From Cyanidioschyzon merolae (taxonomy: Eukaryota), in NCBI GenBank assembly GCA_000091205.1, contig AP006497.2: a DNA stretch of 64,000 nucleotides; one strand, written 5' to 3'. Below the pieces are notes generated by a model. The model saw only the letters and a list, made by a program, of their open reading frames with translations, ran no database searches and was not told where the DNA came from. The translations under genes and the position numbers were made by a program. The number at the start of each line of letters is the position of its first letter. Position 1 is the first letter of the stretch. Positions 2,926 to 58,192 of the stretch are shown here, in pieces.

Positions 2926-5343
2926 TCAGCCCTCTGAACTCGCCAACTCAGCGTCTAATTCGGAATCAGCAATCTCCAGCGGCTCCTCGAACTCGGATGC
3001 AAACTCCGTCAGCAGCCTCTGCAGGAACAGGGACACAACGTCGCTGTTCGCGACTGCCGGCGGTGTCGTCGTCAGGGTCCTGCTTCCCGCCTGTTCGCCG
3101 TCCTTCGAAAACCAAGGCAGACGCATCAGGTCCCAGGCCAGGAGACAAGAATTCGCCTTCAACCGCTGCTGAGTCTCTGCACTCGATATCAGCGGCAGCT
3201 TTGGATAGCGCTGCGAAAAGTGGGTCAATACTGCTCGCTGTGGCTGCATGCTCTCAATGGTACCCAGAGCTTGGCCAATGGTAGAGTGCTTGCGCAACAA
3301 TGCTTCCGCTTCCTTGCCGTCCTCGAAGGTTGCTTCGTGAATCACTAGTGTCGCTCCTCGTGCAGCTGCAATGAGACCCGCATCATACGGCAGCGTATCC
3401 CCGGAATAGACGAGCTTCCACGAAGCAGCAGCTGCAGCGTTATCGCTACTCCGCGCCGTACTTGGTGCGCTTGTTGGCACAGGAAGCGCTTGCTGCTCCT
3501 TAGAGCCGTTCTGATCCCAACCGGCTGCAAGCGCGCTCTCCAAGACCAGACCGTACGCCTCAGGGCAGTGATCCACCGGCAGCGTCCTCAGATGGATACC
3601 CAGCGTCTGTGGGAAATACTCACTCAATGGAGACGTATCCGATTGCAGCAACGCAGCATTATCCAGAAAAATGTACGACATGGGCTCGAGCTCCGCCAAT
3701 GCCTCCAGCCAACGTCCCAGCAGTCGTGGTCCGAGCACCATCAGCGGCATCATCGCTGTTCCGAGTCGCTCAGATTGCGGAAGTTCCCTCGCTAGTCGCG
3801 TCCGTAACGCGACCAACGAACCAACGCCCAGATGATGATCGGCATGCATATGAGATATCCATATGCAACGCACGCGGTGCAACAGCATCGCCTTGGCAGT
3901 ATCAAGCCCGACAGCTCGAACCAGTTGACCAAAAGTGCCTTCACCGGCGTCAAGGAAGAGTGCATGATCCACGAGATCCACGAGAATCGCGCTCACATTA
4001 CGATATCGACTGGGAAGTGCGCTGCCGGTTCCCAGAAACAACACGGAATACGTCTTGGAATCGTTGTTGCTTGACGTTCGCTTGAGGGTATCCGGCTCTC
4101 GGGGAACGTTCAACCTCGACCATCCATGGTTTGCAGCAGCGTGCGATTCGGGTAACGCCCAACCAAGTGTTGTTCGCGGGGCAGCGTTGAAACGCAGGAG
4201 CGGCTGCGCAAGCTGCCATGTCGCAGGCAGTGCCGACGTAGTACGGGCTCGTGGATCCGCTGGGGCCGTCCACGGCTCGAGAAACCAGTTCCAGTCTACG
4301 AATTTGAGTCGTTCGAGCATTGCCGCTTGGCCCCGGAAGGTGATACGCTGGTTACTGAACGATTCACAGGCCACTGAGTGGTACGCGTCCGCACCGAACA
4401 CGTCCAGAGCCCACTCCTGATATTGAGGATCGCTGAACACTTCCGCACAGAGGAAATGAAAGACGCATACTGGTCGTTTTTGTCTGTGCGTTGGCGTCGA
4501 TGCAGCAAGCCGCTGAAACCATTGCTTGAGACGTTGACGACCGCTGGGTGCCTGCATCTGTGATACCAGGTCCGGGGAGGAGGCACAGAGCATCACGAGG
4601 AGTGGTCCCGGACTCGAAGGTTCCATAACGTCAGTTGGATGCACTGTTCGGCGGGTTCCATCAGGTTGCTCCACTTCAATGGACTCGCCTCTCTGAAGTC
4701 GACCGTAGAGCGGCCCCCGAGGAATCCCCAAGGCTGCTGCACGCTCGGTCACAAAACGACCCTTCTGGTCAGCGACGCGTACTGCATATGTTACGAAAAT
4801 TCGCTCAGCGACTTCGTTCTTCGACGACGAGGATAGGGCTTCCGGAACCTCCTCATCTCGTCGTTCCCCGCAGTGTCGTTTCACTTGATCCTTTTGGGTG
4901 GCCAGTGAGCGCTGCAGCTGTTCATCGACAAGCCAAGGCAACGCATACACGGCAAACAAGGGATTCTGAACGAGCGGATCTGAAGGCTCGTCCTCGCCCA
5001 GTTCGTGAACATGCAGCGGATACTGGGGTCTACTGGCAAAGCGCTTCGCCGTGGAGAGGGTTTTCTCTAGTCCCCGCGGTGCGAACATCGTCAACCCTGC
5101 ATGCCCGGCATCCGCCAGGGAAAGCATCAGACCCAGGAATCCGGCGCAGGTGTCGGCATCCAGTCTACTGAGAAAAACATGGGACAGTTTTCCCAATCGC
5201 ACTTTATACTCAATGCAGAGTCGCTGGGTGCCTTCGCTGCAGTTAAAGAGCAGCCGACGCTCTTCCGAGTGGAATACCACCGACGCTGCCGCATCAGCAG
5301 CACCGTTCCCGAGCCACTCTGCAAACGCTCGCATCAAGAACAA
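2926..5343 (-). CDS. ELAC2: tRNase Z (ribonuclease Z), long form: a pseudo-MBL N-terminal half plus a catalytic metallo-beta-lactamase C-terminal half
   Basis: A continuous 805-aa ORF. N-terminal block RLLFNCSEGTQRL...HVFLSRLDAD and mid-protein block LFLGTGSALPSRYRNVSAILV match ELAC2. Metal-binding motif is HMHADHHLG. C-terminal motifs are SGDT...HEATF and AVLTHFSQRYPK. Confidence 0.85.
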   Translation of the reverse strand: MFLMRAFAEWLGNGAADAAASVVFHSEERRLLFNCSEGTQRLCIEYKVRLGKLSHVFLSRLDADTCAGFLGLMLSLADAGHAGLTMFAPRGLEKTLSTAKRFASRPQYPLHVHELGEDEPSDPLVQNPLFAVYALPWLVDEQLQRSLATQKDQVKRHCGERRDEEVPEALSSSSKNEVAERIFVTYAVRVADQKGRFVTERAAALGIPRGPLYGRLQRGESIEVEQPDGTRRTVHPTDVMEPSSPGPLLVMLCASSPDLVSQMQAPSGRQRLKQWFQRLAASTPTHRQKRPVCVFHFLCAEVFSDPQYQEWALDVFGADAYHSVACESFSNQRITFRGQAAMLERLKFVDWNWFLEPWTAPADPRARTTSALPATWQLAQPLLRFNAAPRTTLGWALPESHAAANHGWSRLNVPREPDTLKRTSSNNDSKTYSVLFLGTGSALPSRYRNVSAILVDLVDHALFLDAGEGTFGQLVRAVGLDTAKAMLLHRVRCIWISHMHADHHLGVGSLVALRTRLARELPQSERLGTAMMPLMVLGPRLLGRWLEALAELEPMSYIFLDNAALLQSDTSPLSEYFPQTLGIHLRTLPVDHCPEAYGLVLESALAAGWDQNGSKEQQALPVPTSAPSTARSSDNAAAAASWKLVYSGDTLPYDAGLIAAARGATLVIHEATFEDGKEAEALLRKHSTIGQALGTIESMQPQRAVLTHFSQRYPKLPLISSAETQQRLKANSCLLAWDLMRLPWFSKDGEQAGSRTLTTTPPAVANSDVVSLFLQRLLTEFASEFEEPLEIADSELDAELASSEG

Positions 5344-6631
5344 GAGCTACCAACCGTTTCCAACGCGGACACTCACAGCACGCGTCCCGGAGAGTCGCTG
5401 CTGGCTCGGGTAGCGGTAGCCGCGTTAGACGCTAGTCCTGGTATGTCACCAGGCGAAGGTATCGCCGCAAAAAAAAACAACGTGCTACGCAGTCCACACA
5501 CCGTGTACTGTGAGCGCGGTTTGGGTGCTGGTCACTGTAAGGCGCGAAAATCCGGAGACTCGAGGAGCTGCTCCACAACCGCTAAACGAATGAGTACAGG
5601 GTGCGCCTCGTTGACAGCTGAGCCTTTCACCAAAGGCGCCCGCGTTCAAGCGACGTCCGGCGAGAGCGTTGTACACTTCCAGACAGAAACACCGTTCACT
5701 CGGCACTGTCGTCTGCACTTGCAATCCGGTCTAAAAGCGTCCCCGACTAACCAGAACCCTAACAAGAGACGCTGAGTGTGCCGGCAACGACGCCTTGCTG
5801 ACGACGTAGAGCCGTTGTATCGCCGCCGGCGTCCGCATTATAGGCGACGGACGTCGCAGCGATAGCCCTTAAGAGACGTGATAAGAGGAAGGAGGTTACT
5901 TTCCCGACGGGGTATCCAAGTGAGGCCTGTTTGGGTACTGTGCCGGTTCATTGGACTCGATCAAGCATCGTGATAAGAGGAAGGAGGTTACTTTCCCGAC
6001 GGGGTATCCAAGTGAGGCTTGTTTGGGTACTGTACGTGTTCATTGGACTCGATCAAGCATCGTGATACGAGTGAGGAGGTTACTTTCCCGACGGGGTATC
6101 CAAGTGAGGCTTGTTTGGGTACTGTGCCGGTTCATTGGACTCGATCAAGCATCGTGATACGAGTGAGGAGGTTACTTTCCCGACGGGGTATCCAAGTGAG
6201 GCTTGTTTGGGTACTGTACGTGTTCATTGGACTCGATCAAGCATCGTGATAAGAGGAAGGAGGTTACTTTCCCGACGGGGTATCCAAGTGAGGCTTGTTT
6301 GGGTACTGTGCCGGTTCATTGGACTCGATCAAGCATCGTGATACGAGTGAGGAGGTTACTTTCCCGGCGGGGTATCCAAGTGAGGCTTGTTTGGGTACTG
6401 TACGTGTTCATTGGACTCGATCAAGCATCGTGATACGAGTGAGGAGGTTACTTTCCCGACGGGGTATCCAAGTGAGGCTTGTTTGGGTACTGTGCCGGTT
6501 CATTGGACTCGATCAAGCATCGTGATACGAGTGAGGAGGTTACTTTCCCGACGGGGTATCCAAGTGAGGCTTGTTCAGGTGCCCTATCGATTATATCGTA
6601 TTCATCACGAATCTCTGCGGTCACTTGGAAC
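5344..6631. promoter_or_regulatory. Divergent (head-to-head) intergenic region between tRNase Z and UTP10. About 55% of it is minisatellite.
   Basis: It lies between the start codons of two oppositely oriented genes and contains an A9 run at about 5465 and the 92-bp tandem array. Confidence 0.4.
5877..6575. repeat. 92-bp tandem minisatellite, about 7.6 copies, with 184-bp higher-order structure
   Basis: Units start at 5877, 5969, 6061, 6153, 6245, 6337 and 6429, with a partial unit at 6521. The unit is cgtgataagaggaaggaggttactttcccgacggggtatccaagtgaggcttgtttgggtactgtgccggttcattggactcgatcaagcat. The subsequence tgtgccggttc versus tgtacgtgttc alternates strictly in every other unit. The subsequence aagaggaagg versus acgagtgagg follows the pattern AABBABBB. 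Confidence 0.95.
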
Positions 6632-9600
6632 ATGAGTCGGCTGCAGGAACAACTACGAATCATTCGCGAACGAGAAGAGGCACATCGCATCCTCGGAGCG
6701 AGTCGCTGTACGGTGCTGTTTCCTGACGAAACTATTGCCTCCCGAGTCTCCTGGTCCGAGTTGGCTGCGCTCGCTCGCAATGGACTCGAACAGCTCATCA
6801 AGTTCGACCAGCGGTTTGCATCATTTCTCGACAGCGACCTGTTTCACCACCGCTACGTTATCGAGGGAGCGACAGCACTTCCAGCACTCGATCGCGGCCA
6901 AGAGTCAGCAGCAGCGAACGCGGAGACCCAACAGCTCATTCAACACTTCTGTTACCTCTTGGTGCCGTATTTTACCACGAGACCTGGACAAAAGTGCGTT
7001 GAATGGCTGCTTCGTGCGCACTCAGCAGGAGCACTGGACCCCGCGTCGCTGGTGGTCGCCGCCCTGCCCTATATTGGGACGGAGGCATTTGAGCGGCTCG
7101 TTGCGGCCTTGCACCTAGCGCAGCATGGTGTAGCAAAAGTGCGCTGGCACTGGCTAGAGCGAGTACACTCCTTGGACCACCTAGTAGAACAGAGCAGCGA
7201 ACTCAACTGGTTCGTGCCGTTTCTCCTGGACACCGCAGAAGCGCTCGTGCGTGCACGCGTTTCGGCCGAGGGCTGGCATCGACTGCTTCTCTGCTATGGC
7301 AGCACGCTGGTAGCCAAACATCCGCTACGAGCCGGAAGCGTCATTCGCTTGGTTACCTTGAGCCTATCTCGTGTTGGACAGGCAGCAGAGCGCGACAAGC
7401 ATCTGTGGCAAGCGTTCTGGTATGCTGCATTAGGGATGCTGGTCGCAGCCTATCGTGCCGTCGGTGCCGCAGTCCGCAGCGATGTATTTTCGGCGACTGT
7501 ACGAGCGCTGCTGCGACTTTATGTGCGCACGCGGACATGGTATTCCGGGGACCCAGCCTGGTGTCGAAGACTCACCCTTGTACTGGCCAACCTCTATGCC
7601 GGGTCTCCGCACCAGCCGTTTCCACATGAGTGCCTGGAGACGCTCTCCAGTTGCACAGATGAATGGTATAGGGTGCTGGGAGCCTTGGATGCGTCAGAAA
7701 CGGAGTCTTTGCGCACGGCTTACAGTTTAGCGCTGTTGGAATACTGCTGGCACCAGCAGGACGCTGATGATGATTGCTGGCACCAACTGGTTGCACGCTT
7801 GCCTCCATCCCCTTCGGGATGTAGCGCTTTGATCGGGCGCCTGTTGGAACTTTTCGACGCGACAGTGGCATCGGAGTCAGCTGATGCCACTAAGGTGCAT
7901 TCTGCAGCAGATGCGCAGATGATGCGGTCACAAAGGATGATGGACGCAAGCACTGAGACGCGGGCTTCACTATCTGCAGATCATGCGAATGCGAACTTGG
8001 AGACTCCTGGCTCTCCATGCAGCGCAACCGAGATGCAAGCTCCTGCTGAATGGCATGAAACAACGTCACATGGTCCGGAAGTGTTATTATCCAAGGTGTC
8101 GTGCAAGCGGGGAGGTCGCACCACGACCCATCCACCAAGTGATTCGGACGCTGATCGGGAACGCTTCCGGTCTGCAGCACCGACGACTGAAACGGCATCT
8201 TCGACGCTTGCAGCGACGCCTTCGGGGTCACTGGACGCCAAGCATAGAGCGCAGCCTGCTGGGATGCTCCCGGGGACGCGTGCACCATCAGCGTCTGCCC
8301 TGACGAGGGCAACGGTGGAGCCTGGAGACGCCTCAGCAGCCGACGCAGCATCCGGCGCAAGAGTCGTTTCCGCAGGCATCGGGGCGGAGGCGCCTCCAGA
8401 GGATACCTCTACTGCGCCGCACTCGCTTCGTCGTCGACAGGTACCCAGCGAGGTCGCAGCGCTCGATAGATCTCAACGCATATTGCGCCCGCTGGTAGCG
8501 CATGTCGATCCGGTTACGTTCTGGGAAGCGCTCTACGCTCATGAGCGTCGTTTTCGCGGCAGGGCCAGGTCGTGGACCCTGCTGTGCGAACGCTGCATTG
8601 CGGCGAGCAGCCCGCTTCGAAGCCTGCAGCATCCGGATCCCCGAGTGCGTACTCGGACCCTCCATGCGCTCAGCCAGGCGCCATCTGCAGTACAGGAGCA
8701 GGCGCTTCCCATCATCCTGGAGCTGCTCCAACAGCCGAACGGCTTCGAGGATGATGTGCAGCGAGCTCTCTGCGCACCTGATGACGCTACTTGTGGTGAC
8801 GTATTATGGTTGCGAGATCAACTGGTGCGGGTGGGTGCTCCAGCACTCGAATCCCTCCTACCGCGCGCGATGCTTCTGTATCTGCGCGCTGTAGGGGCGT
8901 GCCCTGTACGAGCGCTCGTGCGATGCTACCGACTGGCGAGTCGGTATCGCCACGGAATGAGTGCCTCGCCAAAGGAAGCCGATGAAATTCATAGCCGTGG
9001 ATTGGCCGAGGGCGTCATTGTCTGGGAGGCAGCGTTTGAACAACTCTGTGCACACTGGAAACTAGCCCCCGAGACGAATGCCGAGCGAGCTGCACGCCGG
9101 GCAGAGCCGGCTGAAATGTGGTTCAGGCGTCTAGGCGAACGCTTTGGACGCTCCAGAGGCGCCGAGGCTTTCACTGCGCTTCTGGAGCAGCTCGTCGACT
9201 TGACGATGAATGAGGATGAGAACGGCGTTACCGCATGTACTTTGCTACTCGAATGGCTTCGCACAGGCGCTGACTTGCTCGATGAGGTGACCATTTGGCG
9301 TTTCCTGGCGAGCATTGTGCATCGACTTGCCGCTGTCCATTGGCTAGCGCCCGTGTCGCGGATACTGCACACCCTCAACGATCGACTTGCACAGACAAAG
9401 CCGATCACGGATCCAATGTTGGTTATGCCTCATGTTCAGCGGATTCTAGAGGCGATTGCTTCGGTACTGGCTCGTGCGCCGCACCCGAGTGCCATCACCG
9501 TGCTGGCGGAAACGTTCATTTGGCTGGCGACGCAATCGAGTCCCATGGAATGCGAGGCGGTGTGCTATGCCCTGCAGCTTGACACTTACCGCGAACAAGT

Positions 9601-12600
9601 GCTCGAGTTTTTGGCCAACGCTGGTGTACAGGCGGCGCGCTGGCTCGCAGTCGGAGCGATTGAGCCGGTCGATGTGCCCGCTGCGCTCGCACTGCTGGAC
9701 ACGTGCTCTGCAAACCTGGGTGTCGCTGGTACAACTGCACTCTTGGAGCATTTATTCAGAGCCTGCGCAACGGATGCAACCTGGTCGGCCCAGTTGCGGC
9801 AACAAACGCGGCGCTTGCTGCACCAGATCGTGCACGAGCATCCCGAAAACGATCATCGAGAGCACCTCCTGGACCGCCACACTGCTCAACTGGTTGCGAC
9901 CTGTATACGACTACTGAAACCGCTCGACGATTCCGACTGGTGCGTGGTTGAACCGTTGTGGGCAGTATCCAAGGCGTCGACGGGTCTCGCAGTCATCCGA
10001 GCGCTCCTCGACGCCTTGCAGGAGCGGGCGACGGACGCAAGCATACCCCAAGCACCGTTGTCGCGCCCGCTTATCACAGCGCTGATCGCGGCCTGCCGCT
10101 GGCTCGCCACCGGACCAACGGAGCAGCCAGCGTTCACGCTCGTTGTACCACGCTCATGGTTAGTGGACCTGCTCCAAAGCAGTGCCTTCCACGCAGACAA
10201 CCAGAAGAGCTTGTGGTTACTGGAGGCTATCGACCTCGGACGTCTTGACTGGAAACCAGAGCCTCCTGCTGCATCCAATGAACACGTATCGACAACACCA
10301 ACAACAGCGACACGCTCCGATTCAGACCCATGGATGAGGTTCATTCAAGAACAGTTCGACCTGGCATGCAGCGGGACGCTCGATACGAATCGCCTCAGCT
10401 GTGTGCTGTGCGTGGCGCTCAGAGATGGAACAGCGCGTGCAGCGCTCCAAGCGCGCCACGTGGCAGCACTGCTGAACGCCAACAAAGCATCGACATGCAC
10501 GCATGTGCCGCAGGGTGATCACCAGCGATGGCGGCGACACGCAGCGCGCCTCCTGATCCAGTGCCTGCACGATGCGGGCACGCGTGGATCGGGGCTCCAC
10601 GGCGAGCTCCTGGAGGCGCTCCTGGGAGCTCTCTGCCAGCACCATGAATGGCTCCCTGCATCGGAACGGCCTGCGTATCGGGTGACGGTTGTCAGGGGCC
10701 TGGTGTGTTATGCGCAGAGCCTTCGGAGCGGGGACGCTGTGCACGCGATGTGGAACGTGGTATGCTTGACCGCGAGTCGCGATCTGCCTTTGGATGCAGT
10801 GCGCGATCTGTTTAGGGAGGTCATTGGGCAGGATGAGGCTGCGCTAGAGCCGGTGTTTCGGGCGCTTCGTGATGCGCGGCGCATACGCGCTGGTACGCTG
10901 GCGCCTGTGCACGCTCCGGGGGCAGCTCGGCGAGGCGATGCGACGCTGTCCGAGCATCGCTCGTCATTGTCGTCGTCGTCGTCGTCGTCGTCAACAACAA
11001 CAACAACAACAGCAACATCGCCGGTATCCGCAACTGCGATGGATCGCTTATGGCTACAGCTGTTGCAGGATGCGGCGGCTTGTGCGCCGAGGCACGTGCG
11101 CCGGCTGCTCTCGGAAGCGTCCGGGATTGCGCCGGCGGTACTCCAGCGTCTGCCTGAGTATCTGGATATGGGGCGCGTCTTCGGAAATGACAGCACCGAA
11201 GATATATTGAGCTTTTTAGAGACGCGGCATTTGCCAGTAGCGCTTGTGCAACACCTGGTGACGCAAGTATGGCCCTTGACGCGCATTCGTGAAGCGCTTG
11301 AGAAACGCGCACAGCCAGTCGTCATGGCGATTCTGGTGGAGCATCTGGTACGCGTGGCGCGGGCGGATGTACCGCGCAAACAGCATCACCAACGTCGGGA
11401 GCTGCAGGAGACGTTACGGGTGCTCGGCCGGCTCTTGCTGGAACAAAACGCTGATCCTGTGCTGGTGCGGCGCTGGCTCGAGCATCCGTATACGCGGACG
11501 CTGGGGCCGGGTATGTTGCCGCTGCTGGCCGCACATGCGGATCCTGTTTGTGTCGCATGCGCTGTTCGGACGTTTGGGCACAAAATGGTACCGCATTTGC
11601 CGCGCGTGTTGGCGCACTGGCCAGCACCGCCTGTTGTGCAAGCGCTCCTGGAGACGCTTCCCGAGTTCGTATCAGCGCCGTACATCCGCCAGCTTTGGGC
11701 GAGCATGTCGGAAAGCTTTCCCGACGATCGGGAGGCGGCAGCGATGCGTTCGCTGCTGGTTGAAGCGGCTCCACCGATGTCGATCCTGGAAGCGCTGAAA
11801 GCGGAAACGCAGCACCTGGCATGTTTGAGCGGCTGGAAAATGATGCACACGGAACCGTTCCAGAGTTTAACAGCGGCGCTTTCGAGCTGGGATTCAACTT
11901 TGGTCCAGCGCTCTTCCGAGCAAATTTTAGCTGTGATCTGGCGAGGTCTGGAAAGTCGTGAACGCATCATGATGAAAGCATTCTATGCAGGACGCGAAAC
12001 AGAGCCGTCCATAAGCGAGCAGCTCGAGCAGCTCGAGACGCATTGTATGGAAGCGTTGGTTACCATGGTGCTGGTGCTGCCACACCCGGCTTGTGGCGAG
12101 ATCCTCTACCGCAGCTTGCTCTGGTGCCAGTCGTTCGCAGCGGATGAGGACAGCGCGGGCGGAGATATCGCTAGCGAGCGCCCAGCGCGTCCGACAAAAC
12201 GACAACGAAGCAGCAGCAGCAGCAGCAGCAGCACTAGTAGTAGTAGTACTATCGGTAGTGACCCTGATGAAGCAGCACCTCTTGGAAGAGCGCACATGCG
12301 TCGCGCGTCTCATTGGCGACGCATCGTCTGGTTCAAACTTATAACAAAGTTCGCATCGCGTCTCGGTAGTCGCTTCCAGGAGTATGTCGAACTCGTCTGG
12401 GATACGATTGCGGAACACGCTCAGCTGGACGCGGCTGGTGCGGCGACACCAGACCCGACGCCCAGCGAGGCGGCTGAGGTACGAGTTGCAGCGCTCGAGA
12501 CGCTTGCGGTGTGCCTCGAAGCAGCGACACCATCGTGTGCGCAACTATCGAGCTCGCAATGCGAAACATGTCTGGATATCCTCGCCCAGTGGCTGTCCGA

Positions 12601-13012
12601 GGCGCACATGGCATCGCCGGTGGCAGCCACTGCCCTAGAGCGTCTGGTAGCGGCGCTGGCGCGCAGCGGCCTGTCCCAGCGAGTCACAACAGTGTCGACG
12701 ACGTCCGGCACGTCTTCGCCGCTGGTGCGCCTCGGACGTCTCATTCTGGTCATGCCTGAGGTTCGTCGAGTGCCGGCTTCGTCGGCAGCGGCAGCCTTGC
12801 GCTTACGGGTGCGCCTGGTGCGCGTCCTCATCGAAACGCTGGACGAGGCGTATCTGCCGCCGCTGCTGCCGCGAACCCTATCGTGGCTCGCCGAAGTGCT
12901 CGATAACCCCGACAGTGCCGTTGAAGAGATGGCACGAGATATTGCAAACCGCCTGAGTCGAATTTCGGGCGAAGATATCTTGACGCAGTTGCGCGAAACG
13001 CCAGCGATTTAG
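6632..13012 (+). CDS. UTP10: U3 snoRNP / SSU processome HEAT-repeat protein UTP10 (HEATR1), 2126 aa
   Basis: N-terminus MSRLQEQLRII is colinear with the HEATR1 N-terminus MTSLAQQLQRL. The block YFTTRPGQKCVEWLLRAH...VVAALPY matches HEATR1 YFLLKPAQKCLEWLIHRF...IACVLPY. The C-terminal HEAT repeat LPRTLSWLAEVLDNPDSAVEEMARDIANRLSRISGEDI matches the BP28CT end. The maximal ORF begins at 6479 inside the minisatellite, so I chose the first Met that aligns with homologs. Confidence 0.85.
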   Translation: MSRLQEQLRIIREREEAHRILGASRCTVLFPDETIASRVSWSELAALARNGLEQLIKFDQRFASFLDSDLFHHRYVIEGATALPALDRGQESAAANAETQQLIQHFCYLLVPYFTTRPGQKCVEWLLRAHSAGALDPASLVVAALPYIGTEAFERLVAALHLAQHGVAKVRWHWLERVHSLDHLVEQSSELNWFVPFLLDTAEALVRARVSAEGWHRLLLCYGSTLVAKHPLRAGSVIRLVTLSLSRVGQAAERDKHLWQAFWYAALGMLVAAYRAVGAAVRSDVFSATVRALLRLYVRTRTWYSGDPAWCRRLTLVLANLYAGSPHQPFPHECLETLSSCTDEWYRVLGALDASETESLRTAYSLALLEYCWHQQDADDDCWHQLVARLPPSPSGCSALIGRLLELFDATVASESADATKVHSAADAQMMRSQRMMDASTETRASLSADHANANLETPGSPCSATEMQAPAEWHETTSHGPEVLLSKVSCKRGGRTTTHPPSDSDADRERFRSAAPTTETASSTLAATPSGSLDAKHRAQPAGMLPGTRAPSASALTRATVEPGDASAADAASGARVVSAGIGAEAPPEDTSTAPHSLRRRQVPSEVAALDRSQRILRPLVAHVDPVTFWEALYAHERRFRGRARSWTLLCERCIAASSPLRSLQHPDPRVRTRTLHALSQAPSAVQEQALPIILELLQQPNGFEDDVQRALCAPDDATCGDVLWLRDQLVRVGAPALESLLPRAMLLYLRAVGACPVRALVRCYRLASRYRHGMSASPKEADEIHSRGLAEGVIVWEAAFEQLCAHWKLAPETNAERAARRAEPAEMWFRRLGERFGRSRGAEAFTALLEQLVDLTMNEDENGVTACTLLLEWLRTGADLLDEVTIWRFLASIVHRLAAVHWLAPVSRILHTLNDRLAQTKPITDPMLVMPHVQRILEAIASVLARAPHPSAITVLAETFIWLATQSSPMECEAVCYALQLDTYREQVLEFLANAGVQAARWLAVGAIEPVDVPAALALLDTCSANLGVAGTTALLEHLFRACATDATWSAQLRQQTRRLLHQIVHEHPENDHREHLLDRHTAQLVATCIRLLKPLDDSDWCVVEPLWAVSKASTGLAVIRALLDALQERATDASIPQAPLSRPLITALIAACRWLATGPTEQPAFTLVVPRSWLVDLLQSSAFHADNQKSLWLLEAIDLGRLDWKPEPPAASNEHVSTTPTTATRSDSDPWMRFIQEQFDLACSGTLDTNRLSCVLCVALRDGTARAALQARHVAALLNANKASTCTHVPQGDHQRWRRHAARLLIQCLHDAGTRGSGLHGELLEALLGALCQHHEWLPASERPAYRVTVVRGLVCYAQSLRSGDAVHAMWNVVCLTASRDLPLDAVRDLFREVIGQDEAALEPVFRALRDARRIRAGTLAPVHAPGAARRGDATLSEHRSSLSSSSSSSSTTTTTTATSPVSATAMDRLWLQLLQDAAACAPRHVRRLLSEASGIAPAVLQRLPEYLDMGRVFGNDSTEDILSFLETRHLPVALVQHLVTQVWPLTRIREALEKRAQPVVMAILVEHLVRVARADVPRKQHHQRRELQETLRVLGRLLLEQNADPVLVRRWLEHPYTRTLGPGMLPLLAAHADPVCVACAVRTFGHKMVPHLPRVLAHWPAPPVVQALLETLPEFVSAPYIRQLWASMSESFPDDREAAAMRSLLVEAAPPMSILEALKAETQHLACLSGWKMMHTEPFQSLTAALSSWDSTLVQRSSEQILAVIWRGLESRERIMMKAFYAGRETEPSISEQLEQLETHCMEALVTMVLVLPHPACGEILYRSLLWCQSFAADEDSAGGDIASERPARPTKRQRSSSSSSSSTSSSSTIGSDPDEAAPLGRAHMRRASHWRRIVWFKLITKFASRLGSRFQEYVELVWDTIAEHAQLDAAGAATPDPTPSEAAEVRVAALETLAVCLEAATPSCAQLSSSQCETCLDILAQWLSEAHMASPVAATALERLVAALARSGLSQRVTTVSTTSGTSSPLVRLGRLILVMPEVRRVPASSAAAALRLRVRLVRVLIETLDEAYLPPLLPRTLSWLAEVLDNPDSAVEEMARDIANRLSRISGEDILTQLRETPAI

Positions 13013-32793: not shown

Positions 32794-34156
32794 ATCGAAA
32801 ACGGGCTCACACACGACACTTTGGGTCACTTGCCAGAGCAATCAGCACCGGCCTCTGCGACGTATTTCTCTGGTGGCTTGCTTTCCCTCCATCTGATCTC
32901 CAGCTTCAAATACACCGGTCGCTCGTCACGCTCCAGCTCCATGCACAGCAGTCGACGGTTGTCGATGGCAGCGTTCAAGACCCGATCTCGCTGGCTGCAG
33001 CTGTTGTTTACGCATTTCATGCCGAGGCAAAGGTCGCGATCTGCGCCTCGCTTGCCAGGCTCCTCCTCTATGTGTACGGCGTCCGCGCGCCCCGAACAGC
33101 CACGACACGTGGCAACGGCGAGTCGTTCCCGTAGGCACACACGACGACCCCGCCGCCGACTGCCGGCCTGCGGTGCACGACCGCCCGCTTCATCGCCCGG
33201 GACATGCCCTTGACGGGTCCGGAGAGCTCCGGTCGATGCCGGCCACGGTTTTGCCGCGCCCGATGCCCTACTCCTCGATCAAGCACGTCGTCGGGACGAC
33301 GCTTTTGCTGAATGCACTGCCCGCTGCACGCCCGAGCACACGCGCTTCCATTGGATGAGGGATCCGTGGAATGCGATGTGGTCCCATGAAGAAACAAGCA
33401 CCAGAGACAGAATCCTGGCTCGGGAACGGGTCGAGGGATTTCCACTCGCCGACGCTGCCGTTGTGCGAAACGGCTAGGCATGCTGGAATGGACACGATCG
33501 CTGCGATAGTTCAGGCCAGAGTGCAGCACCCGTTTCGGTGCGAGCGGCACCGCCGGGAGCCTGCTGGAGCGTATCCCGCGAGACGTATCCTGTTGCTGTC
33601 GAATGCAGCTTCATCGATAGTCGGGAAGACAGCAGGGTTTTTGTTTTGAGGGGAATCGATTCGCGAACGTTTGACGGGTCATTGGGTTTGGATGTGAGCT
33701 TTTGAATGGATCTTCAAGAAGCGACGACAAGTTTTGACCGCCGTCAACGCAGTGGCGCAGGTTGCTGTGCCCCGCCTACACGGCGTCCAGTAGGTCGATC
33801 GATGACTTGAGGAATGCGTCGTTTGCATATGCTAAACGCAGGGAGCGGAGAAACGCGAGTGCTTTTGCCCATGCATTCGATCATCATACAGGTATTTACG
33901 AATCCCAGTGTTATCGTGTGTCGCGAATTCGCTTGATCCTGGTGAAGAACCGATGTTGAGCGGCAAAGCGCCGAGGGCGTCATTCGAAGCCCTCGACCAA
34001 GCATCTTAGAACTACACATGACTCCGCAAATTCCCGGTGATGCATCTTGAATGTCGAATCTGTGCATCCTGATCAAGTTGGAATTGAATCGGAAGGCAGT
34101 AATAGGGGGCAAGCAGTTCAGTGTTCCAGTTTTATCTGACACTGCAGCCGAGCCGC
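32794..34156. repeat. Left arm of a 1.36-kb inverted repeat (element R1)
   Basis: It is the reverse complement of 36539..37896 at about 97-98% identity, checked on several stretches such as ccttccgattcaattccaacttgatcagg. The mirrored ORF pairs in the track (32782/37478, 33068/37141, 33371/37042, 33744/36459, 33762/36732) trace the same relationship. Confidence 0.9.
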
Positions 34157-34342
34157 GCGATGACGCACGATGCTCCAAATCGTCGCCCGCTCTACTCGTG
34201 CACTGGTGATACGACAAGAGGCGCTGAGTCGGAGACCGAGAAGCATAGCCATTGACTGCGCCTACGCAAAAACCTCTTGGGACTTTATCCTTTTCTCGAG
34301 CACCTTCCTGGAATAAAGCTGCTGTTGAACAGTTACGAAAGG

Positions 34343-36145
34343 ATGGTGGTTCTCGCGATCGCTATTTTGAACAAGCTCGGCCGGCTACTGATTTCTCGTC
34401 AGTTTCGTGAGATGCAGCGGACCCGCGTCGAAGGTCTACTCGCCGCTTTTCCGAAACTTTTGGAAAACGAGATGACACGGAGTGGGGAGAATCGCCAACA
34501 CACGTTCCTCGAGTCGGACACGGTTCGCTACGTATACCAGCCAGTGGAAAATCTCTATGTGGTGTTAATCACGAACAAGACGAGCAATATCGTCCAAGAT
34601 CTTGAGACGCTTCGTTTGGTCAGCAAGTTGCTCGCAGAGCTCAGCCCGATCGTGGGAGTGATCGATGAAACCGCCGTATACGAAGCAGCTTTCGACTTGA
34701 TCTTTGCCTTTGATGAGGTCATCGACTGGGGCGGCTACGCAGAGGCCGTGAACGTGCCTCAGATTCGTCAGTATCTCGAAATGTATAGCCACGAGGAGCG
34801 CTTAGCAAAAATGATCAAAGAGAGCAAAATGCATGAGGCGAAAGAGGAGATGCGTCGAAAGGCGAATCTCATTGAGAAACAGAAGCAAGACCTTGCGAAA
34901 CTGCCGCCCGAGATACGACGCCTCATGGGCCTTGAAGGGAGCTCAGTTTCGGCAGGCTCTGGCGCGCCTGCAGTGTCTACCGGTGCGTATTCAACGGGGA
35001 ATATGCGAGGATTCGGGCCCCAAGACTTTTCTGGTGCTCTCGGAGGCAGCACTCTGCTTGGCGATGTTGGACCTGCTCCGTCCTTGACGCTGGGCGCCAC
35101 CAGAATAGCAGCGGACCAGTCGGCAAGCATCACGGTTTCAGCCGGAGGCCGGGGTCTGTCTCTCGGGAAGCCAAAGGCTCGCACCGAGGACTGGATGGCG
35201 CACCTGCATGCTGAGAGTGAAACATCTTCCGCAGATGCGCAACGCTCGCGCGTTACTCCCGATCATACGGAGCCTACAGCGTCGCAACGAGCTGCGAAGA
35301 CAGTCCCGTCCGAATCCGCCACTCGAGCGGTTGCAACATCTTCAATCCCTGCGTCTGATTTCCATCTAACGACCGAGGAGAAGCTGAGTATATCACTCAC
35401 TCGTGACGGTCGACTCGAGAGCTTTCAAGTACACGGCGAGCTTCTCCTTCAGATACGCGATCAAAAGCGGGCACACGCTCGCATCCGGCTGAAACCGCTT
35501 CCGGAATCGATGATGCAAAAGGTGCAGCTGCGACTGCATCCGATGTTGGATCGTTCGCTTTGGCAACAGTCGTGGGTGCTCGCACAACGCAACGCGGAGC
35601 GCCCGTTTCCCTATGGTAGCCCGACGCCAATGAGCCTGATCAAGTGGCGTTTTCAGTCCACTGATGAGAGTCTGCTGCCTGTGCTTCTGACCTGTTGGCC
35701 AACAGTCTCCAGTGATGAGACGTCGATGACGATCGAGTATGAGATGATGTCTCGCGCATCGGTTTCCTCAGACTTGTGTCCTCCGTCATCGCTGTCTTCC
35801 GTGCAGGTGCACGTACCGTTGCCGCGAACAGCAGTACAGCCTGGATTCTTCCAGTTGACACGTGTGGACGGCCGTGCAACGCTGGATGAAGCCGCCGCTG
35901 CCGTGCTTTGGACGTTGCCTCCGCTGGAGGCGCCCTGTAGCGGTGCGCTAGAGTTTACGATTGCAGCTGTAGAAAATCCCGAGCGTATGTTTCCGATTCA
36001 AATACAGATATCGGCCACAGAGGTTTATACGAAGCTTGAAATTTTGCGGGTGGAGGTGGCGACATCCCCAGAGTCGGTGCCAACGGAGGAGACGGCGTTC
36101 ACGCAGGAGCATCGCCTGCTCACCGATCGATTCGAGATTGTATGA
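34343..36145 (+). CDS. ARCN1: Coatomer (COPI) subunit delta, with a longin-like N-terminus and a mu-homology C-terminus
   Basis: [39 protein letters not shown] matches human ARCN1 [39 protein letters not shown]. Further matches are ...[16 protein letters not shown]...LETLRL...[10 protein letters not shown]...AKEEMRRKA. The maximal ORF starts at 34277, and I chose the homolog-aligned Met. Confidence 0.92.
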   Translation: [600 protein letters not shown]

Positions 36146-36538: not shown

Positions 36539-37896
36539 CTCGGCTGCAGTGTCAGATAAAACTGGAACACTGAACTGCTTGCCCCCTATTACTGCCTTCC
36601 GATTCAATTCCAACTTGATCAGGATGCACAGATTCGACATTCGAGATGCATCACCGGGAATTTCCGGAGTCATGTGTAGTTCTAAGATGCTTGGTCGAGG
36701 GCTTCGAATGACGCCCTCGGCGCTTTGCCGCTCAACATCGGTTCTTCACCAGGATCAAGCGAATTCGCGACACACGATAACACTGGGATTCGTAAATACC
36801 TGTATGATGATCGAATGCATGGGCAAAAGCACTCGCGTTTCTCCGCTCCCTGCGTTTAGCATATGCAAACGACGCATTCCTCAAGTCATCGATCGACCTA
36901 CTGGACGCCGTGTAGGCGGGGCACAGCAACCTGCGCCACTGCGTTGACGGCGGTCAAAACTTGTCGTCGCTTCTTGAAGATCCATTCAAAAGCTCACATC
37001 CAAACCCAATGACCCGTCAAACGTTCGCGAATCGATTCCCCTCAAAACAAAAACCCTGCTGTCTTCCCGACTATCGATGAAGCTGCATTCGACAGCAACA
37101 GGATACGTCTCGCGGGATACGCTCCAGCAGGCTCCCGGCGGTGCCGCTCGCACCGAAACGGGTGCTGCACTCTGGCCTGAACTATCGCAGCGATCGTGTC
37201 CATTCCAGCATGCCTAGCCGTTTCGCACAACGGCAGCGTCGGCGAGTGGAAATCCCTCGACCCGTTCCCGAGCCAGGATTCTGTCTCTGGTGCTTGTTTC
37301 TTCATGGGACCACATCGCATTCCACGGATCCCTCATCCAATGGAAGCGCGTGTGCTCGGGCGTGCAGCGGGCAGTGCATTCGGCAAAAGCGTCGTCCCGA
37401 CGACGTGCTTGATCGAGGAGTACGGCATCGGGCGCGGCAAAACCGTGGCCGGCATCGACCGGAGCTCTCCGGACCCGTCAAGGGCATGTCCCGGGCGATG
37501 AAGCGGACGGTCGTGCACCGCAGGCCGGCAGTCGGCGACGGGGTCGTCGTGTGTGCCAACGGGAACGACTCGCCGTTGCCACGTGTCGTGGCTGTTCGGG
37601 GCGCGCGGACGCCGTACACATAGAGGAGGAGCCTGGCAAGCGAGGCGCAGATCGCGACCTTTGCCTCGGCATGAAATGCGTAAACAACAGCTGCAGCCAG
37701 CGAGATCGGGTCTTGAACGCTGCCATCGACAACCGTCGACTGCTGTGCATGGAGCTGGAGCGTGACCAGCGACCGGCGTATTTGAAGCTGGAGATCAGAT
37801 GGAGGGAAAGCAAGCCACCAGAGAAATACGTCGCAGAGGCCGGTGCTGATTGCTCTGGCAAGTGACCCAAAGTGTCGTGTGTGGGCCCGTTTTCGA
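36539..37896. repeat. Right arm of the 1.36-kb inverted repeat (element R1)
   Basis: See the left arm. The two arms flank a unique 2.38-kb spacer that contains the complete coatomer delta CDS. Confidence 0.9.
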
Positions 37897-38237
37897 TCAG
37901 CCGGGATACCGTTCTTCGCTTTCCGACATTGATGTGAAAAGCGCGTACCGTTCCGTTCTTTCTTGCCCAGATATCGGTGACGATGCGTCCATAAGATGAC
38001 ACCCGTAGAGACCAGATACGATCACAATATCCGGTTGGCATGGGCCCCCACATCTCGCACAAACGCCCCCTGATGTTACTGGGTCGTTCTTTGAGCGCTG
38101 CAGCGCTGACGACCGGCTCCACCCGGAAACCGGCATTGCCTCTTTGCCGATGTTTATCGTTCGTGTGAGACGCTCTTCCAAAAAGCCGTAGGTGTTCTGG
38201 ACACGCGTCCCAGCCTAACACGCGATTTTGATAGAGA

Positions 38238-52828: not shown

Positions 52829-52873
52829 TGCGTGCGTGCATGCGTGCGTGCGTGCGTGCGTGCATGCGTGCGC
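52829..52873. repeat. (TGCG)n-like alternating purine/pyrimidine tetranucleotide tract about 35 bp upstream of the kinase ORF
   Basis: tgcgtgcgtgcatgcgtgcgtgcgtgcgtgcgtgcatgcgtgcgc. Confidence 0.85.
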
Positions 52874-57796: not shown

Positions 57797-58056
57797 TAGC
57801 TTTCGTCACGATCGCACCCAAAGGTAGATGTTGGCCAGCTGCGTCCAATCCTTTACAAAACCTTCACGTTTTAGACTATCCGCGTACACCGCACCGCCCT
57901 AGAGGCTGCTCGTACGCACCGCAACTCTTCCGTCGAAGCGAAAAGCACTACCACTACTACCACCACCACCAAAGAATCTCGCAGTCAAGGTGCTCGATGC
58001 AGGTACAAGTGCCCGGCGGCGCCGGCGTGCTACCCGAAAGCCTGGATCACAGCGCG

Positions 58057-58089
58057 CCTGCCTGCCTGCCTGGCTGCCTGCCTGCCTGG

Positions 58090-58124
<35 letters not shown>

Positions 58125-58192
58125 GCTGCCTGCCTGTCTGCCTGGCTGCCTGCCTGCCTGCCTGCCTGCCTGTCTGCCTGCCGGCGCGCCGC
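58057..58192. repeat. (CTGC)n tetranucleotide microsatellite with CTGG/CTGT variants, about 34 units
   Basis: cctgcctgcctggctgcctgcctgcctgg... read directly over about 136 bp. Confidence 0.95.

Follow-up and report, generated by a model that had tools for sequence, protein, structure and literature searches.

The genes predicted to encode tRNase Z and UTP10 in Cyanidioschyzon merolae point away from each other, and 54% of the 1297 bp between their start codons is taken up by tandem copies of a 92-bp unit (Table 1). This arrangement raises the question of whether the copies are a regulatory device of the flanking genes, a row of small non-coding RNA genes, a product of misassembly or a repeat that grew there with little consequence. 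We favour the last answer, with a probability of roughly 0.68: the array would be a minisatellite (VNTR) of recent origin, confined to one lineage and one locus, that occupies the spacer between two genes with a conserved head-to-head arrangement, has been remodelled at the DNA level and is near-neutral. The array had been described in an earlier note made from the sequence alone, whose claims are taken up where results bear on them. The window denotes the whole stretch of 64,000 nt that was analysed.

Table 1. Features of the tRNase Z/UTP10 locus, in coordinates of the window
Feature	Coordinates	Strand	Basis
CDS of tRNase Z (ELAC2-type, long form, 802 aa), pointing away from the array; ATG at 5334	2926..5334	-	Pfam matches and homologues
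Unique 542-nt left spacer from the tRNase Z ATG to the array; near-identical in conspecific contigs	5335..5876	-	
92-bp minisatellite, seven full units and a 55-nt terminal partial unit	5877..6575	.	Tandem Repeats Finder, register, core matches
Units 1-4, with all four block combinations (A/G, A/A, C/G, C/A); candidate 368-bp higher-order block	5877..6244	.	Haplotype table and lag analysis
Units 5-7, closely resembling units 1-3; unit 6 departs in block 1 and has G at column 31	6245..6520	.	
Terminal 55-nt partial unit, 57-112 nt upstream of the UTP10 ATG	6521..6575	.	
Right flank, 56 nt of unique sequence that ends just before the UTP10 ATG; has ATTATAT at 6590-6596, TATA-like by inspection	6576..6631	+	
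CDS of the UTP10/HEATR1 homologue (2126 aa), pointing away from the array; ATG at 6632	6632..13012	+	Structure-chain and Pfam matches

The names that the two flanking genes had been given were upheld. The tRNase Z product matches the Pfam families Lactamase_B_4 (E = 1.7e-12) and Lactamase_B_2 (E = 5.3e-15) and has homologues: an identical protein is present in the database, the 90% cluster of this protein includes BAM81548.1 of C. merolae 10D, from which the window's protein differs, and the next relatives, at 62-63% identity, are those of Cyanidiococcus yangmingshanensis and of the lineage represented by metagenome contig L003. The N-terminus of the UTP10 product matches human HEATR1 of the SSU processome (7mq8, chain 7mq8_LM; E = 3e-11), which is of similar length, and its C-terminus has a weak match to BP28CT (E = 5e-4) that does not reach the Pfam cut-off.

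Tandem Repeats Finder returned positions 5877-6575 as one tandem array with a period of 92, 7.6 copies, 95% matches and no indels (score 1258), in agreement with the ~7.6 tandem 92-bp copies that had been reported between the two divergent genes. This is the sole repeat with a period >15 bp in the 64-kb window. The units are arranged head-to-tail and in register, seven of them complete. The array had been said to end 57 bp before the UTP10 ATG; with the ATG at 6632, the gap is 56 nt. Eight columns vary across the units. Those at 66, 68 and 69 (GCCGG versus ACGTG) read G,A,G,A,G,A,G along the window allele, which is the perfect alternation that had been claimed for this block; for four units of one type and three of the other it is expected by chance in 1/35 of cases, a value that is noteworthy albeit not overwhelming. 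The second block, formed by columns 8, 12 and 13 (AAGAGGAAGG versus ACGAGTGAGG), reads A,A,C,C,A,C,C,C and is indeed in another phase. The singleton variants are column 31 in unit 6 (A to G) and column 51 in unit 1. Each block consists of three differing positions within 4-6 nt, and ~80 other positions are identical; this pattern suggests that the blocks may have arisen by single multi-nucleotide events rather than by long divergence. A 30-nt core had also been described as invariant. It is exact in seven of the eight copies, unit 6 carrying the change at column 31, and its conservation is no better than that of the remainder of the unit; the only 30-nt stretch free of any variation is made up of columns 70-92 and 1-7. 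Matches to the core number eight in the 64-kb window (expected, 0) and all of them lie within the array.

The relationships among the units were analysed by counting mismatches at increasing distance. Among the seven full units, the mean numbers of mismatches at lags 1, 2, 3 and 4 are 5.0, 2.8, 4.25 and 1.67, respectively. Units two or four positions apart are more alike than neighbours, the behaviour of a higher-order repeat, observed here in the window allele and on seven units only; across alleles this higher-order period is not stable (contigs L009 and L010). Units 1 and 5 have one difference, units 3 and 7 are identical, unit 4 is identical to unit 8 over 55 nt, and units 2 and 6 have four differences. 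With block 1 of unit 6 as the exception, units 5-8 repeat the block combinations of units 1-4. A history in which a 368-bp tetramer was duplicated once, with one short conversion and two point changes, is no less economical an account of the array than growth by 184-bp dimers. The expansion by 184-bp dimers that had been read from the alternation is therefore one reading and not the sole one, since the lag 4 value (1.67) is below the lag 2 value (2.8) and adjacent GCCGG units occur in L009 and L010. The accompanying proposal of recombination or conversion between units stands, because exchange or conversion is needed to explain two blocks that are out of phase.

The earlier note had proposed a search for the unit at other places. 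As far as could be tested, i.e. in the 64-kb window and with a 26-nt core pattern in JGI metagenome contigs, the unit is single-locus and not a dispersed satellite family. Three metagenome contigs match the degenerate 26-nt core pattern exactly, and all of them align to the tRNase Z/UTP10 locus. In the rest of the 64-kb window, k-mers of the unit are not enriched, and the single 12-mer that recurs belongs to the two arms of an unrelated inverted repeat described below. No matches to the unit were found in the viral and prokaryotic collections, and an origin of the unit from either source was rejected on that basis. One recurrent motif, CTCGATCAAGCA, was also set aside: its two extra matches (33274 and 37406) count as one chance event because both are arms of a single, unrelated inverted repeat. 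That repeat (32794-34152 and 36539-37897) has arms of 1359 nt that are 99% complementary and are separated by 2386 nt, and it lies around an ORF at 34277-36145 (+); an inverted segmental duplication and a structure akin to a mobile element are both conceivable. A further observation concerns the exact 15-mer TACGTGTTCATTGGA, which corresponds to columns 64-78 of the ACGTG-type unit and is present in inverted orientation at 10274-10288 (-), inside the UTP10 CDS. It has one occurrence (naive expectation ~0.02) with no extension on either side, and it may be due to chance or date from the origin of the unit, as a remnant of templated filler DNA.

Two outgroups were available for comparison, a 226-kb metagenome contig (L003) and the Cyanidiococcus genome GCA_013995675.1 (L004). 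The divergent UTP10/tRNase Z pair is kept in both and in all conspecific spanning contigs. The two outgroup tRNase Z proteins are 62-63% identical to that of the window and 73% identical to each other, and the UTP10 N-terminus MSRLQ(E/Q)QL is kept in both. The distance from ATG to ATG is 656 bp in L003 and 521 bp in L004, compared with 1297 bp in the window. No tandem repeat was found in either of these spacers, and comparison of the unit with them gave only 7-9-mer matches at chance level (E 0.6-2.4). As the array is absent from these two more remote cyanidialean lineages, it is lineage-specific. When the 120-135 nt next to UTP10 were aligned among the window, L003 and L004, no convincing conservation was seen upstream of the start codon, with the exception of CCCGACGG.GT. 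This 8-11-nt match is located upstream of the ATG at ~85 nt in the last unit of the window and at ~112 nt in L003; an old cis-element may make up part of the unit, which we treat as a lead only. As to the neighbouring gene, tRNase Z is a single ORF of 786-802 aa in C. merolae and L003 and is annotated in L004 as two gene models, one at 9303-9821 (the 172-aa N-terminal Lactamase_B_4 part) and the other at 10001-11632 (the 543-aa C-terminal part); the split is probably due to a frameshift, an intron or mis-annotation in that assembly.

Variation within the species group was analysed in 13 contigs that encode an identical or near-identical tRNase Z. Among these contigs and the window, the gene and the left spacer diverge by 0.03-0.7%. 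All conspecific contigs that extend as far as the array site carry the 92-bp unit. The majority of the short-read contigs stop at the array edge or close to it, as expected for a multi-copy array. In the contigs that span the site, the array measures 55 bp (L012; 0.6 unit), 147 bp (L018; 1.6 units), 239 bp (L016; 2.6 units) or 360 bp (L009 and L017; ~3.9 units, one of them an aberrant unit of 29 nt), against 699 bp and 7.6 units in the window; short-read assemblers can collapse arrays, and these short copy numbers may reflect such collapse, or be lower bounds, rather than represent real alleles. Contig L010 enters the array for at least four units, and L005, which encodes the 10D-identical tRNase Z, has at least two. 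The unit that adjoins the unique flank is of type AGA/GCG in the window, L001, L009 and L018, AGA/AGT in L016 and L010, and CTG/GCG in L005. There are also variants private to the edges, namely G at column 5 in several first units and C at column 39 in several last units. First units differ in this way among contigs with flanks that are at least 99.3% identical, and collapse by an assembler cannot account for such flank-anchored differences. Adjacent GCCGG-GCCGG (GCG-GCG) units are present in L009 and L010, so that strict alternation is a property of the window allele and not of the locus. Polymorphism of the array, which had been anticipated with respect to its length, was found in the order and the variants of the units, which differ among conspecific haplotypes; polymorphism in length is only probable, given short-read collapse. 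The 0.6-unit form of L012 was considered as a candidate for the ancestral state and rejected. This contig is nested among array-bearing haplotypes (0.14-0.24% from L013, L014 and L001), and 0.6 of a unit cannot generate columns 56-92; the form is for these reasons a collapse, either biological or by the assembler. The terminal 55 nt are the only portion of the unit found in all conspecific contigs that span the site, including L012. On the other side of tRNase Z, the downstream region at 1-2925 is colinear among the window and the conspecific contigs L009, L010, L007 and L013; some haplotypes carry indels of 10-26 nt there and others none, and gene calls shift between them (453 aa versus 341 + 180 aa).

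Taking the array as a young and near-neutral minisatellite, we infer the following course of events. A piece of ~92 bp from the UTP10-proximal spacer would have been duplicated in tandem, after which the array would have grown and been reshuffled by replication slippage, unequal sister-chromatid or homologous exchange and short-tract gene conversion. Most likely, the last large step in the window allele duplicated a block of four units (368 bp); a single conversion, affecting unit 6 (or unit 2), and two point changes would have come afterwards, and the period-2 alternation would be a by-product of this history. Tolerance of the array would be explained by its non-coding nature, its position upstream of both genes and the lack of any added ATG on the UTP10 strand. 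The array would set the two promoter sides ~640 bp further apart and supply extra copies of promoter or leader sequence from the UTP10 side. On present evidence, a small effect on expression is more probable than a large one; the array would not be a required regulatory device, nor is it a conserved one. There are counterpoints to this account. With 56 nt between the array and the UTP10 start codon, duplication of promoter-proximal sequence could easily have consequences, and the absence of ATG from the unit and right flank would fit selection on a transcribed leader. As to an origin from the spacer, neither flank resembles the unit (columns 56-92 included) above shuffled controls, and the possibility that the flanks are decayed units was rejected on the same grounds.

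The ATG content of the spacer bears on the transcription of both genes. On the UTP10 strand (+), there is no ATG throughout 5877-6631; for one unit and the right flank together, this absence has P = 0.006 in comparison with dinucleotide shuffles. The opposite strand carries two ATGs per unit. These counts are compatible with the unit being derived from, or serving as, UTP10 leader or promoter sequence, and argue mildly against tRNase Z transcripts that start inside or beyond the array. The left spacer has a single ATG on the tRNase Z strand (5838), which lies within a TATA-like CTATAAT at 5843-5837, as read from the sequence. Depletion of upstream ATGs was tried as a proxy for a long tRNase Z leader and abandoned, since 1 ATG in 542 nt is not significant (P = 0.24 versus dinucleotide shuffles). 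In L003, the 656-nt spacer (9345-10000) has no ATG on the tRNase Z strand (P = 0.0015 versus dinucleotide shuffles), and the nearest ATG on that strand is at 337 nt in L004 and at 504 nt in the window. There are hints here that tRNase Z of the Cyanidiales may have an unusually long 5' leader, or a start site near UTP10. Transcript ends were also sought in three Logan contigs (L002, L008 and L015) that contain the tRNase Z gene only, have similar ends and give an apparent transcription start at ~5568, and this candidate was discarded because the ends are unitig breaks: the 3' ends stop in a (GGT)n microsatellite at 2894-2924 and the 5' ends at a polymorphic palindrome, T/A at ~5568. The polymorphism (GGAGCTGCTCC) is at the centre of this short palindrome of the left spacer, and two independent Logan contigs end there. 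The positions of TATA boxes and transcription start sites are unknown for all endogenous C. merolae promoters (2025 paper, PMC12770821). The spacer, which had been labelled a bidirectional promoter, is a putative one, judged from the orientation of the genes.

The alternative with most in its favour is a functional promoter VNTR, in which the units carry factor-binding sites, an activating region of UTP10 or its core promoter, and copy number tunes the expression of UTP10 and perhaps of tRNase Z. This is the possibility that the earlier note had raised, and we regard it as unlikely. The position of the array in the spacer of a conserved divergent pair, so close to the UTP10 ATG, is as such an arrangement would have it, and so are the retention of the promoter-proximal 55 nt of the unit in every spanning allele, the ATG-free UTP10 strand and the presence of CCCGACGG at a similar upstream distance in L003. 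The unit also contains sequences that we take to be putative sites: a GATA-like TGATAAG and an ACGT core would be gained or lost with the state of the variable blocks, and all units would share a minus-strand CCAAT and a near-E2F TTTCCCGA. That tandem sites can work in this organism is known from synthetic constructs, as transcription in C. merolae is driven by 12x ZFHD1 and 4x LexA sites placed ahead of a core promoter (PMC12770821). Against this, the unit is not conserved in two outgroup lineages that have the same gene pair, and the order and apparent number of units vary freely among strains that are >99.3% identical. Moreover, the core named in the earlier note is no more conserved than the rest of the unit, and the rest of the window shows no enrichment of any sub-motif of the unit. 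A bolder version, which we consider doubtful at best, is that of a natural copy-number dial: the units would duplicate an activating segment common to UTP10 and tRNase Z, and hot-spring alleles of 0.6 to >7 units would set different expression levels for the assembly of the translation machinery. If true, it would be a rare case of evolvability through a promoter VNTR in an otherwise almost repeat-free minimal eukaryotic genome.

That the array, or its copy number, results from misassembly of the source genome is very improbable. Tandem repeats are error-prone in assemblies, other assemblies differ in copy number and L009 has its aberrant 29-nt unit; yet at least seven independent assemblies contain the same unit in the same place with a multi-unit structure, and unit variants are common to several of them. 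The question of artefact touches only the exact count of 7.6 and the internal order of the units.

Tandem small non-coding RNA genes (snoRNAs, permuted or otherwise unusual tRNAs, or others), which the ~90-nt unit, the rRNA- and tRNA-processing neighbours and the permuted and disrupted tRNA genes for which C. merolae is known (PMC3728597) might have led one to expect, are largely refuted and extremely improbable, as there are no Rfam matches at E <= 10 on either strand, no tRNA was detected by ARAGORN in a tandem layout that offers every circular permutation of the unit, fold z-scores are -0.5 to +0.5 relative to shuffled sequences on both strands in three registers, inspection of both strands revealed no CUGA D box and no proper C box, and the unit is not conserved outside the species group. 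Nor is the array coding: the unit length of 92 is not divisible by 3, and no ORF runs through the whole array. A scan for sigma-70 promoters and terminators, irrelevant for a eukaryote, found nothing.

Considered as a near-neutral minisatellite, the array is an ordinary kind of tandem repeat that would not surprise a specialist. It resembles classical minisatellites (VNTRs with units of 10-100 bp) in unit size, head-to-tail arrangement, confinement to a single non-coding locus, interspersed variant units, allele-specific order and private edge variants. It differs from them in being short, whereas human minisatellites are typically also meiotic hotspots, and in residing in one of the most repeat-poor genomes known among eukaryotes. 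The simplicity of the C. merolae genome has been described by Nozaki (2007; PMC1955436). In alpha satellite and other higher-order repeats, as here, similarity at lags 2 and 4 exceeds that at lag 1; in contrast to alpha satellite, the array has only 7.6 units at one euchromatic locus, is neither dispersed nor centromeric, and does not keep its pattern in other alleles. Compared with bidirectional promoters of head-to-head housekeeping pairs, the locus has the conserved divergent pair of RNA-processing and ribosome-biogenesis genes, with a spacer of 0.5-0.65 kb in relatives; it differs in that the spacer of the window is doubled to 1297 bp by the array, and shared promoter activity is an assumption.

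Promoter repeats that alter expression are said to have been described in yeast by Vinces et al. in 2009. Other such repeats are TR34 and TR46 of Aspergillus fumigatus cyp51A and the fivefold 126-bp repeat of Penicillium digitatum CYP51. Like these, the array is a promoter-proximal tandem duplication just upstream of a gene, with a copy number that probably varies among strains. In the yeast, cyp51A and CYP51 cases, however, copy number has been tied experimentally to expression or phenotype and the repeats lie upstream of one gene, whereas the C. merolae array is known from sequence alone and lies between two. The literature search found no paper on this repeat or on promoter repeats of C. 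merolae. What is unusual about this otherwise ordinary minisatellite is its setting, directly upstream of a ribosome-biogenesis gene in a minimal, repeat-poor model genome. It could serve as a hypervariable marker for Cyanidioschyzon strains and hot-spring populations that differ elsewhere by <1%, and as a natural allelic series for promoter dissection in C. merolae; short-read assemblies of this species also break there repeatedly. Should the expression of UTP10 or tRNase Z depend on copy number, the locus would provide a simple case of repeat-driven expression variation in an extremophile alga.

Simple repeats of shorter period were also observed in the window. Two long tetranucleotide microsatellites are (GCCT)n, with 31.8 copies at 58056-58182, and (TGCG)n, with 11 copies at 52829-52872. 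Coding regions contain many in-frame trinucleotide runs, and the (GGT)n tract at which Logan contigs break is situated just beyond the stop codon of tRNase Z.
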